From Escherichia coli (GTDB lineage Bacteria; Pseudomonadota; Gammaproteobacteria; Enterobacterales; Enterobacteriaceae), in the NCBI RefSeq assembly GCF_003334335.1, contig NZ_QOWQ01000006.1: a stretch of 64,000 nt of DNA. One strand, given 5' to 3'. The notes under the pieces are model-generated. The model saw only the letters and a program-made list of their open reading frames with translations, searched no databases and was not told the origin of the DNA. How positions within the stretch are numbered: the stretch's first letter is position 1; every line of letters begins with the position of its first letter. Shown in pieces: positions 1,387-18,392 of this stretch. Made by a program: the position numbers and the translations under genes.

Positions 1387-1490
1387 ACGTTCCTCCTTTA
1401 TATGAACTCACCGGAGCAGGCTCCGGTGAGGTGTTGTGAACTTAAGTCTGGACGAAATGCCCGAAAACGAAAGTTTGAGGCGTAAAAAGC

Positions 1491-6024: not shown

Positions 6025-6759
6025 GTGGGTAATAATTTAATGCAGACGGACCTTTCCGTCTGGGGTATGTATCAGCACGCCGATATTGTCGTTAAGTGCG
6101 TGATGATTGGGCTTATTTTGGCCTCCGTAGTCACCTGGGCAATCTTCTTCAGTAAGAGCGTAGAGTTCTTCAATCAGAAGCGTCGCCTTAAGCGCGAGCA
6201 GCAACTGCTGGCTGAAGCGCGTTCCTTAAACCAGGCCAACGATATCGCCGCTGATTTTGGTAGCAAAAGCTTAAGCCTGCATTTGCTCAATGAAGCGCAG
6301 AATGAGCTGGAACTGTCAGAAGGCAGCGACGATAACGAAGGTATTAAAGAACGTACCAGCTTCCGTCTGGAGCGTCGGGTCGCCGCAGTGGGTCGTCAAA
6401 TGGGCCGCGGTAACGGCTATCTGGCAACCATCGGCGCGATTTCTCCGTTCGTTGGTCTGTTTGGTACGGTCTGGGGCATCATGAACAGCTTTATTGGTAT
6501 CGCGCAAACGCAGACCACTAACCTGGCAGTCGTTGCGCCGGGTATCGCAGAAGCTCTGTTAGCAACGGCAATCGGCCTCGTGGCAGCGATTCCTGCGGTC
6601 GTTATCTATAACGTATTTGCACGCCAGATTGGCGGCTTTAAAGCGATGCTGGGTGATGTTGCAGCGCAGGTATTGTTGCTGCAAAGCCGTGACCTGGATC
6701 TGGAAGCCAGCGCCGCTGCGCATCCGGTTCGTGTCGCACAAAAATTACGCGCAGGATAA
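6025..6759 (+). CDS. exbB: TonB-system energizer ExbB
   Basis: 244-aa ORF with GTG start (MGNNLMQTDLSVWGMYQHADIVVK...); MotA/TolQ/ExbB family membrane protein. Confidence 0.9.
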   Translation: MGNNLMQTDLSVWGMYQHADIVVKCVMIGLILASVVTWAIFFSKSVEFFNQKRRLKREQQLLAEARSLNQANDIAADFGSKSLSLHLLNEAQNELELSEGSDDNEGIKERTSFRLERRVAAVGRQMGRGNGYLATIGAISPFVGLFGTVWGIMNSFIGIAQTQTTNLAVVAPGIAEALLATAIGLVAAIPAVVIYNVFARQIGGFKAMLGDVAAQVLLLQSRDLDLEASAAAHPVRVAQKLRAG

Positions 6760-6765
6760 TATCCG

Positions 6766-7191
6766 ATGGCAATGCATCTTAACGAAAACCTCGACGATAA
6801 CGGCGAAATGCATGATATCAACGTGACGCCGTTTATCGACGTGATGTTGGTTCTGCTGATTATCTTTATGGTGGCGGCACCGTTAGCGACGGTAGATGTG
6901 AAGGTGAACTTGCCTGCTTCTACCAGCACGCCGCAGCCGCGCCCGGAAAAACCGGTTTATCTGTCGGTGAAGGCAGACAACTCGATGTTTATCGGTAACG
7001 ATCCGGTCACCGATGAAACAATGATTACGGCGTTGAATGCGTTAACCGAAGGCAAGAAAGACACCACCATCTTCTTCCGAGCGGACAAAACCGTCGATTA
7101 CGAGACGTTGATGAAGGTAATGGATACGCTGCATCAGGCGGGTTACCTGAAGATAGGTCTGGTCGGCGAAGAAACCGCCAAAGCGAAGTAA
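6766..7191 (+). CDS. exbD: TonB-system protein ExbD
   Basis: 141-aa ORF immediately after exbB; ExbD/TolR family. Confidence 0.9.
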   Translation: MAMHLNENLDDNGEMHDINVTPFIDVMLVLLIIFMVAAPLATVDVKVNLPASTSTPQPRPEKPVYLSVKADNSMFIGNDPVTDETMITALNALTEGKKDTTIFFRADKTVDYETLMKVMDTLHQAGYLKIGLVGEETAKAK

Positions 7192-7198
7192 AGTAGAA

Positions 7199-7410
7199 TT
7201 GCCTGATGCGCTACGCTCATCAGGCCTACAAAATCTATTGCAACATGTTGAATCTTCGTGCGTTTGTAGGCCGGATAAGGCGTTCACGACGCATCCGGCA
7301 TTAGGTGCTCAATGCCTGATGCGCTACGCTTATCAGGCCTACAAAATCTATTGCAACATGTTGAATCTTCATGCGTTTGTAGGCGGATAAGGCGTTTTCG
7401 CCACATCAGG
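7199..7410. repeat. REP/BIME cluster: two near-identical ~105-bp units, each holding inverted REP palindromes
   Basis: Unit gcctgatgcgctacgct(c/t)atcaggcctacaaaatctattgcaacatgttgaatcttc(g/a)tgcgtttgtaggc... occurs at about 7199-7311 and again at 7313-7410; classic REP core. Confidence 0.7.
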
Positions 7411-7430
7411 TAAGAGTGAATTCACAATGA

Positions 7431-7465
7431 TGCCCGGTTGCTTTTCACAACCGGGCATTTTTTTA
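7431..7465. terminator. stem-loop with T-run between convergent exbD and yghA (probable bidirectional terminator)
   Basis: tgcccggttg-cttttca-caaccgggca followed by ttttttt. Confidence 0.5.
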
Positions 7466-8347
7466 ACCTAAATGCTCGCCGCCGCACACGCCGTGCACTT
7501 CTGCGGTGACGTAGCTCGACTCCTGACTTGCCAGATAAACATATACAGGGGCCAGTTCCGCCGGTTGCCCCGCACGTTTCATCGGCGTTTGCTGACCAAA
7601 CTGCGGGATCTTATCCTGCGTTTGTCCGCCGGAAATTTGCAGTGCTGTCCAGATCGGGCCTGGCGCGACAATATTCACCCGAATACCTTTCTCCGCGACC
7701 TGTTTTGCCAAGCCACGGCTGTAGTTCAGAATCGCCGCCTTCGTAGCCGCATAGTCCAGTAAATGCGGACTTGGCTGGTATGCCTGGATTGACGAAGTGG
7801 TGATGATACTTGCACCTTTCGGTAGCAGGGGGATCGCTTCCTGGGTTAGCCAGAACAGCGCGAAAACGTTAATGGCAAAGGTCTTTTGAAACTGTTCGCT
7901 GGTGAGGTCTGCAATATCCGGAATGGCAACCTGTTTCCCGGCGACCAGCGCCATAATATCCAGCCCGCCTAACGCCTTGTGCGCTTCGTGAACCAGCGAA
8001 CGGGCAAATTTCTCATCGCTTAAATCGCCTGGCAGCAGAACGGCTTTGCGTCCGCATTCTTCAATGATCTTTTTCACATCCTGAGCGTCTTCTTCTTCCA
8101 CGGGAAGATAACTGATCGCCACGTCAGCCCCTTCACGCGCGTAAGCGATGGCGGCAGCGCGACCTATTCCGGAATCGCCCCCTGTCACCAGTGCTTTACG
8201 ATCTTTCAGGCGACCGCTACCAACATAGGTTTTCTCGCCGCAATCCGGTACCGGTGTCATCTTCGCCTGGATGCCTGGCGTCGGTTGTTTCTGTTTGGGA
8301 TATTCACCAGTGTAATACTGCGTGGTCGGGTCTTTTAAATGAGACAT
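7463..8347 (-). CDS. yghA: short-chain dehydrogenase/reductase family oxidoreductase
   Basis: 294-aa ORF; SDR glycine-rich motif [12 protein letters not shown]. Confidence 0.9.
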
Positions 8348-18295: not shown

Positions 18296-18392
18296 ATTAG
18301 CTTTCGTAGGCCTGATAAGACGCGGCAGCGTCGCATCAGGCATTGTGCACGATTGCCGGATGCGGCGTGAACGCCTTATCCGGCCTGGATGG
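18296..18392. repeat. REP-type palindromic repeats between hybG and yghU
   Basis: taggcctgataagacgcg...gcatccggcatt...gccttatccggcc REP-like units. Confidence 0.55.

Follow-up and report, generated by a model that had tools for sequence, protein, structure and literature searches.

A tandem pair of BIME-1-like units, very probably the listed REP222 cluster, between exbD and yghA of Escherichia coli

The intergenic region between exbD and yghA carries two near-identical repeat units in direct orientation. In the window, a term used here for the whole 64-kb stretch of DNA that was analysed, the two copies occupy positions 7200-7412 with a period of 113 bp, as found both by reading the sequence and by a repeat search. 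The two genes converge on the repeats, as the first-pass annotation had claimed, with exbD on the plus strand and yghA on the minus strand according to the open reading frame list and the RefSeq annotation. The features of the locus are as follows:

6766-7191, plus strand: exbD coding sequence, 141 aa, with the stop codon TAA at 7189-7191 (ORF list, RefSeq annotation)
7193-7425: segment of 233 bp that is missing from empty-site alleles, made up of the array and its flanks, GTAGAAT on the left and AGAGTGAATTCAC on the right
7200-7229, plus strand: Y-type REP of unit 1, TGCCTGATGCGCTACGCTCATCAGGCCTAC; hairpin of -15.3 kcal/mol, z -5.1; invariant across paralogous BIME-1 copies
7230-7265: L linker of unit 1, 36 nt, delimited by alignment with other BIME-1 linkers
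7253-7241, minus strand: IHF-like core ATTCAACATGTTG in the unit 1 linker (consensus scan)
7266-7300, plus strand: Z-type REP of unit 1 in the GTAG orientation, GTAGGCCGGATAAGGCGTTCACGACGCATCCGGCA; hairpin of -17.0 kcal/mol; inverted with respect to Y
7301-7312: S-type linker TTAGGTGCTCAA, 12 nt, joining the Z REP of unit 1 head-to-head to the Y REP of unit 2
7313-7342, plus strand: Y-type REP of unit 2, TGCCTGATGCGCTACGCTTATCAGGCCTAC (repeat search, hairpin fold)
7343-7378: L linker of unit 2 (alignment with unit 1)
7366-7354, minus strand: IHF-like core ATTCAACATGTTG in the unit 2 linker (consensus scan)
7379-7412, plus strand: decayed Z-type REP of unit 2, GTAGGC-GGATAAGGCGTTTTCGCCACATCAGGTA; one 1-nt deletion and six substitutions relative to the Z REP of unit 1
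7429-7464, plus strand: intrinsic terminator, a hairpin at 7429-7459 followed by a T-run, common to exbBD and yghA (terminator scan)
7463-8347, minus strand: yghA coding sequence, convergent with exbD, stop at 7463 (ORF list, RefSeq annotation)

The exbB gene (6025-6759) is labelled 'tol-pal system-associated acyl-CoA thioesterase' in genomes annotated by PGAP, and 'Ton complex subunit ExbB' in the MG1655 record. The former is a product name that we take to belong to YbgC, and the label looks like a propagated product-name error.

The repeat search returned a 72-nt direct repeat, 7200-7271 against 7313-7384, with 97% identity and a spacing of 113. The repeat goes on past the 1-nt deletion, with 81% identity between 7272-7298 and 7384-7410. 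When 7200-7300 is globally aligned with 7313-7412, 92 of the 101 columns are identical, and the remainder consists of eight mismatches and one gap; seven of these nine differences sit in the last REP (7271-7299). The unit length is 100-101 bp, and the period of 113/112 bp exceeds it because a 12-nt spacer (7301-7312) parts the units. At first reading, two nearly identical units of about 105 bp had been placed at 7199-7410, downstream of exbD. The duplication itself is borne out, and is also present in MG1655; the coordinates and the unit size are essentially right, whereas the period is 113 bp and not 105. The 16-nt linker core TTGCAACATGTTGAAT occurs in just two places in the window, both of them in the array, with 0.22 occurrences expected by chance. 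Tandem Repeats Finder returned no array at 7200-7412. This is presumably a false negative, reflecting a limit of sensitivity at 1.9 copies, and it was dismissed since the repeat search and the direct alignment show the array clearly. Open reading frames within the array (e.g., 7199-7390) were also dismissed, as by-products of the repeat.

From 7170 to 7480, the window matches E. coli K-12 MG1655 (NC_000913.3) base for base. The intergenic region of MG1655 is 271 bp long, with yghA ending at 3150546 and exbD at 3150818. At an identity of at least 95%, 3675 of the 5426 complete E. coli genomes searched contain the junction between the units. Given the identity with MG1655 and the presence of the junction in so many genomes, the array is not an assembly artefact.

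The order of elements in the array is Y-L-Z-S-Y-L-Z*, where Z* denotes the decayed REP. All four REPs carry CTAC or GTAG, the tetranucleotide conserved at the foot of these imperfect palindromes of 30-40 nt, and three of the four are stable as hairpins (-13 to -17 kcal/mol, z -3.6 to -5.1). The Y REP of both units has the form TGCCTGATGCGCTACGCT(C/T)ATCAGGCCTAC; in unit 1 its hairpin stem starts at 7201, 9 nt past the exbD stop. The Z REP of unit 1 is one base off the Z REP of paralogous BIME-1 copies in the alignment. The Z REP of unit 2, when folded alone, does not form the REP stem but a different, weak hairpin (-9.6 kcal/mol, z -2.4). In both linkers, ATTCAACATGTTG has one mismatch to the IHF core WATCAANNNNTTR. 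Taken alone this is weak evidence, as the window holds about 1.2 such near-matches per kb.

Three classes of BIME bear on the assignment of this array, and they are distinguished by their REPs and linkers (Ton-Hoang et al. 2012, PMC3333891). BIME-1 (RIP/RIB) consists of inverse y and z REPs and a long conserved L linker, often with an IHF site, and is defined as a single copy per locus. BIME-2 has y and z2 REPs, an S linker, and flanking linkers of the s, l or r type, and is bound with high affinity and cleaved by DNA gyrase. Atypical BIMEs mix L and S motifs and are found in multiple copies, the number of which differs between strains.

The array is extragenic, lying between the exbD stop and the yghA stop, and has a median of 16-39 matching places per genome across the 5426 genomes. 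Each unit runs from a Y REP through an L linker to an inverted Z REP and aligns over its full length with the dispersed BIME-1 copies at uspB-pitA and tcdA-mltA, in agreement with the composite REP/BIME identity that had been proposed for it. A seven-way alignment, which includes the alleles of strains E69 and EC42405 at this same locus, shows hardly any variation in the Y and Z REPs and clear homology in the linker. The Y REP of unit 2 is identical over 29 nt to a reference REP query quoted in PMC11208160. The junction between the units is a canonical S-type linker, since near-identical 12-mers join Z and Y REPs at nadR-ettA (TTCGGTGCTCAA) and yjjX-trpR (TTCGGTGCACGA). The array does not belong to the BIME-2 class: it does have an S-like linker, but an L linker takes the other place and the Z loop is of the BIME-1 type. 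The combination of L and S linkers in a multicopy, strain-variable array therefore places it among the atypical BIMEs.

The supplement of a preprint (Harris et al. 2026, bioRxiv 10.64898/2026.03.23.713779) gives REP222 as the nearest REP to the exbB:exbD:yghA terminator, at a distance of 27 nt. The array is thus very probably, with a probability of roughly 0.88, the REP/BIME cluster listed as REP222, an 'atypical BIME' in which two BIME-1-like units are joined by a canonical S linker as Y-L-Z-S-Y-L-Z*. It is an ordinary array that has already been catalogued. The local RefSeq record of MG1655 has no REP features at this position; it has none at REP325 either, so their absence is uninformative. 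A literature search for exbD together with REP found nothing relevant.

Two further BIMEs were observed. In strain FDAARGOS_1304, the nadR/nadS-ettA intergenic region (L015 380-535) holds an atypical BIME of the order Z-S-Y-L-Z, whose S linker differs by one base. It is abutted by a truncated nadS pseudogene, and may be related to the exbD-yghA junction or have donated it. The second BIME of the window, at 18306-18388, is a single Y-S-Z pair, GTAGGCCTGATAAGACGCGGCAGCGTCGCATCAGGCA-TTGTGCACGAT-TGCCGGATGCGGCGTGAACGCCTTATCCGGCC.

The two units of the array might have arisen on the spot or have arrived separately. Both share the linker variant CAACATGTTGAATCTTC, whereas the other copies examined, including the single units at the same locus in E69 and EC42405, have the usual TTGAATTTGCATG. 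Over their first 71 nt, units 1 and 2 differ at two positions only. Because the shared linker variants are absent from all other copies examined and the differences are so few, the alignments indicate that the units are each other's closest relatives and result from local amplification, in line with the tandem duplication that was first claimed. Under the alternative, two BIME-1 elements would have been inserted independently, side by side. This would agree with the description of BIME-1 as single-copy per locus (PMC3333891), and with the S linker between the units, which recurs as a family motif and does not copy the outer flank. However, independent insertions would leave two neighbours with the same private linker variants and with near-identity over 71 nt, and we consider them very unlikely. 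Local amplification does not by itself account for the S linker, which the alignment does not find at the outer flanks of single-unit alleles.

BIME copy-number variation between strains has been described since the 1990s. At the present locus it was surveyed by searches of the 5426 complete E. coli genomes, from which 59 chromosomes were sampled evenly down the ranking. The alleles are as follows:

Two intact units: about 64% (38 of 59 chromosomes), including K-12, BL21, O157:H7, O111 and O103
Two units, interrupted by an insertion sequence: about 5%, with IS621 in two rows and IS200C in one row of 59
One hybrid unit, K-12 type: about 2% (1 of 59 rows)
Empty site: about 30%, e.g., UTI89 (B2)
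One divergent unit with an intact Z REP: about 23 genomes, about 0.4%, EC42405 type

Two units are present in about 68% of E. coli genomes. The number of genomes that cover at least 80% of a 551-nt query (3591) fits the sampled estimates, as does the junction count of 3675. The comparison of 5426 genomes supports the statement, made at first reading, that the copy number varies between strains: zero, one and two units were all seen. With a synthetic three-unit query, no allele of three units ranked at the top, although diverged ones could be hidden.

The same annotation had connected such units with local recombination, and two kinds of allele at this locus agree with it, the hybrid single unit and the array with IS621 inside a REP. 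In the single unit of the K-12 type, the Y loop has the unit-1 variant, while the linker has the unit-2 variant and the Z REP is the decayed one. This is consistent with unequal crossing-over or slippage inside an identical 39-bp stretch (7218-7258).

The empty allele reads GCGAAATAAA/AATGATGCCC in strain Z142-7, and UTI89 has the same 318-nt span. Escherichia sp. MOD1-EC7003 shares this empty sequence, and the identity of its flanks to K-12 is only about 94-95%. Strain E69, which is about as divergent from K-12 as MOD1-EC7003, has a single unit. Since one of these outgroups is empty and the other is filled, they do not settle the polarity on their own. A wider outgroup scan with the terminator pattern returned three loci only, one of which was a chance match in an Akkermansia MAG. 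The empty state is probably ancestral, as a precise deletion that regenerates the T-run seems less likely. A further difference between the alleles lies in the last codon of exbD, which is AAA in every empty allele examined and AAG in every BIME-bearing one examined. This split suggests old linked haplotypes rather than recent excision.

Some of the two-unit arrays are occupied by mobile elements. IS621 has as its natural target ATCAGGCCTAC, whose core is CT (PMC11208160). In strains L5_E1779_ETEC and S21, IS621 has inserted into the Y REP of unit 2, where the sequence reads ATCAGGCCT-IS621-ACAAAATC; the insertion point is exactly between CT and AC, at window position 7340/7341. The IS621 copies lie at L004 3641-4912 and L005 1223-2502, and SNPs in the flanks show that the strain backgrounds differ. 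In all, at least three sampled genomes have IS621 at this point of the unit 2 REP; in the third, GPEC1176, the match pattern is the same as in S21. A junction query for IS621-occupied genomes is confounded by IS621 at other REP loci. In HCM-25C-3, the insertion is a different one: IS200C (IS200/IS605 family) is found in the T-run of the exbD/yghA terminator (L006 2914-3624, at about window position 7462). The locus is likely to be a hotspot for recombination and IS621 insertion, with the array acting as a natural IS621 landing site. Elsewhere in the window, the second BIME (18306-18388) includes a minus-strand IS621 target at 18316, and ATCGGGCCTAC, an exact match to the target loop of the IS621 bridge RNA, occurs once, at 50748-50758 on the plus strand.

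The duplication also creates a junction that resembles a catalogued RNA:

7269-7339, plus strand: Z-S-Y junction, match to Rfam naRNA4 (RF02564) of 61.0 bits (gathering score 59.5)

This stretch folds as one hairpin (-41.4 kcal/mol, z -6.8), and the minus strand of the junction matches naRNA4 with 44.9 bits. One could suppose that the junction encodes a naRNA4-like nucleoid-associated RNA, which would work with HU on the chromosome. The score is above the gathering score, and the Z-S-Y topology is that of the REP325 repeats. However, the score is marginal, and the opposite strand matches too, as expected for a palindromic REP pair. The Y REP is also short here, with 30 nt as opposed to 37 nt in REP325. 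Moreover, the model in effect detects generic REP pairs, given that 18309-18385 in the window scores 92.6 bits; that score is for the minus strand of the second BIME (18306-18388), the plus strand of which scores 60.1 bits. Finally, REP325/naRNA4 was without measurable nucleoid compaction, and REP-REP contacts were not seen (Harris et al. 2026, preprint). A naRNA4-like RNA from this junction is therefore extremely improbable, and the match is not taken as evidence for a distinct RNA gene. Other small RNA matches at the gathering level in the window are C0719 at 43632-43853 (minus strand, 298 bits) and ES173 at 1425-1488 (minus strand, 99 bits).

The array lies between the stop codon of exbD and the shared terminator, and is therefore part of the 3' UTR of exbBD. 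The supplement of Harris et al. 2026 lists a bidirectional terminator exbB:exbD:yghA at MG1655 3150546-3150582; the source study of these terminators is called sequence-based in the main text. The predicted structure of the 285-nt region is very stable on both strands (minimum free energy of -110.8 kcal/mol and z -6.7 on plus, -113.2 kcal/mol and z -8.7 on minus). In both cases, the global optimum is predicted to be one long, near-continuous hairpin of about 210 nt, centred on the S linker. The terminator of the empty allele is compact and scans as bidirectional, whereas for K-12 the scan accepts the exbD-side site alone. The idea that BIME insertion abolished termination on the yghA side was considered, and it is weakened by the listing of the K-12 hairpin as a bidirectional terminator in the preprint supplement.

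From what is known of its family, several ways in which the array could act on its neighbours may be proposed. The effect on mRNA stability that was named at first reading belongs to the family as a whole, and may extend to this locus. Once transcribed, the REP hairpins would impede 3'-to-5' exonucleases and partly attenuate transcription, and might in this manner modestly tune exbBD and yghA mRNA. REPs are described as terminators or stabilisers in 3' UTRs, and REP-containing convergent gene pairs are expressed above controls (Harris et al. 2026). According to the summary of Liang et al. 2015 given in PMC12306157, translation of a gene can be lowered by REPs that lie at most 15 nt beyond its stop codon. 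The first hairpin, 9 nt past the stop, falls inside this range and may act likewise on exbD. Each L linker offers a putative IHF site, and the Z-S-Y junction resembles BIME-2, a gyrase target, so that binding of these proteins might be envisaged. Genome-wide, terminal REPs do not lengthen half-lives. The strong intrinsic terminator hairpin downstream could by itself protect the 3' end. Against a strong role for the array, it is dispensable, being absent from about 30% of E. coli genomes including UTI89.

A more elaborate scenario can be drawn from the comparison of alleles. BIME insertion would have parted the exbD stop from a terminator that was ancestrally compact and bidirectional, and would have replaced the yghA-side T-run; the array hairpin would be a substrate of RNase III; and the presence of zero, one or two units would tune ExbB/ExbD, the energiser of TonB, and yghA according to lineage. 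We regard this scenario as doubtful.

A simpler possibility is that the array is a neutral, selfish or passenger repeat without measurable effect on exbBD or yghA, whose copy number is set by drift and recombination. Clean empty sites in about 30% of genomes would be expected of such a passenger, as would the rare genomes that tolerate IS621 or IS200C in or beside the array, the decay of the last REP, and the genome-wide half-lives referred to above. On the other hand, the two-unit form is nearly unchanged in about two thirds of genomes and in several lineages (K-12, BL21, O157:H7, O111 and O103). The higher expression of convergent pairs with a REP, and the position of the first hairpin within the distance from the stop codon at which translation is reported to be affected, also speak for some effect. 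The neutral alternative has appreciable weight, but on balance we think it rather unlikely.

For an element that is a textbook REP/BIME cluster of the reference K-12 genome, the importance of the array beyond housekeeping is little. Its interest lies in the series of alleles at one locus, i.e., empty, single divergent, double, recombinant single and IS-interrupted. This series could serve as a natural experiment on the effect of REPs at the 3' end of the operon that energises TonB.

Comparison with known systems places the array between described classes. The likeness to BIME-1 lies in the Y REP and the inverted Z REP with the loop GTTCACG, in an L linker of about 35 nt that holds TCAA-N4-TTG, and in the placement at the 3' end of a transcription unit. 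The difference is that BIME-1 is a single copy, whereas here an S linker joins two units, of which the second has a degraded Z REP.

The array is also similar to BIME-2 as represented by REP325 (yjdM-yjdN). REP325, the source of naRNA4, has alternating inverted Z and Y REPs, an S linker of 11-12 nt that joins them head-to-head, and a period of about 100-113 bp. The S linker of REP325, ACGGTGCCGAC, corresponds to TTAGGTGCTCAA of the present array. In contrast, REP325 consists of six repeats, its Y REP is 37 nt long instead of 30 nt, and its Z loop is GTTTACG instead of GTTCACG. In addition, it has a 17-nt non-IHF linker, AAATTCCCGCACCCTCC, where the exbD-yghA array has the 36-nt L linker.

With respect to IS621, a bridge-RNA recombinase element of the IS110 family, the target ATCAGGCCTAC is present in both Y REPs, at 7219-7229 and 7332-7342. 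The target is a property of the REP and not a separate element, and the window itself is without IS621.

The closest correspondence is with the atypical BIMEs. A related arrangement, Z-S-Y-L-Z, exists at the nadR-ettA locus. As described in 2012, an atypical BIME has L and S linkers, y and z REPs, and more than one tandem copy in a number that varies between strains, and from this description the exbD-yghA array shows no essential difference.
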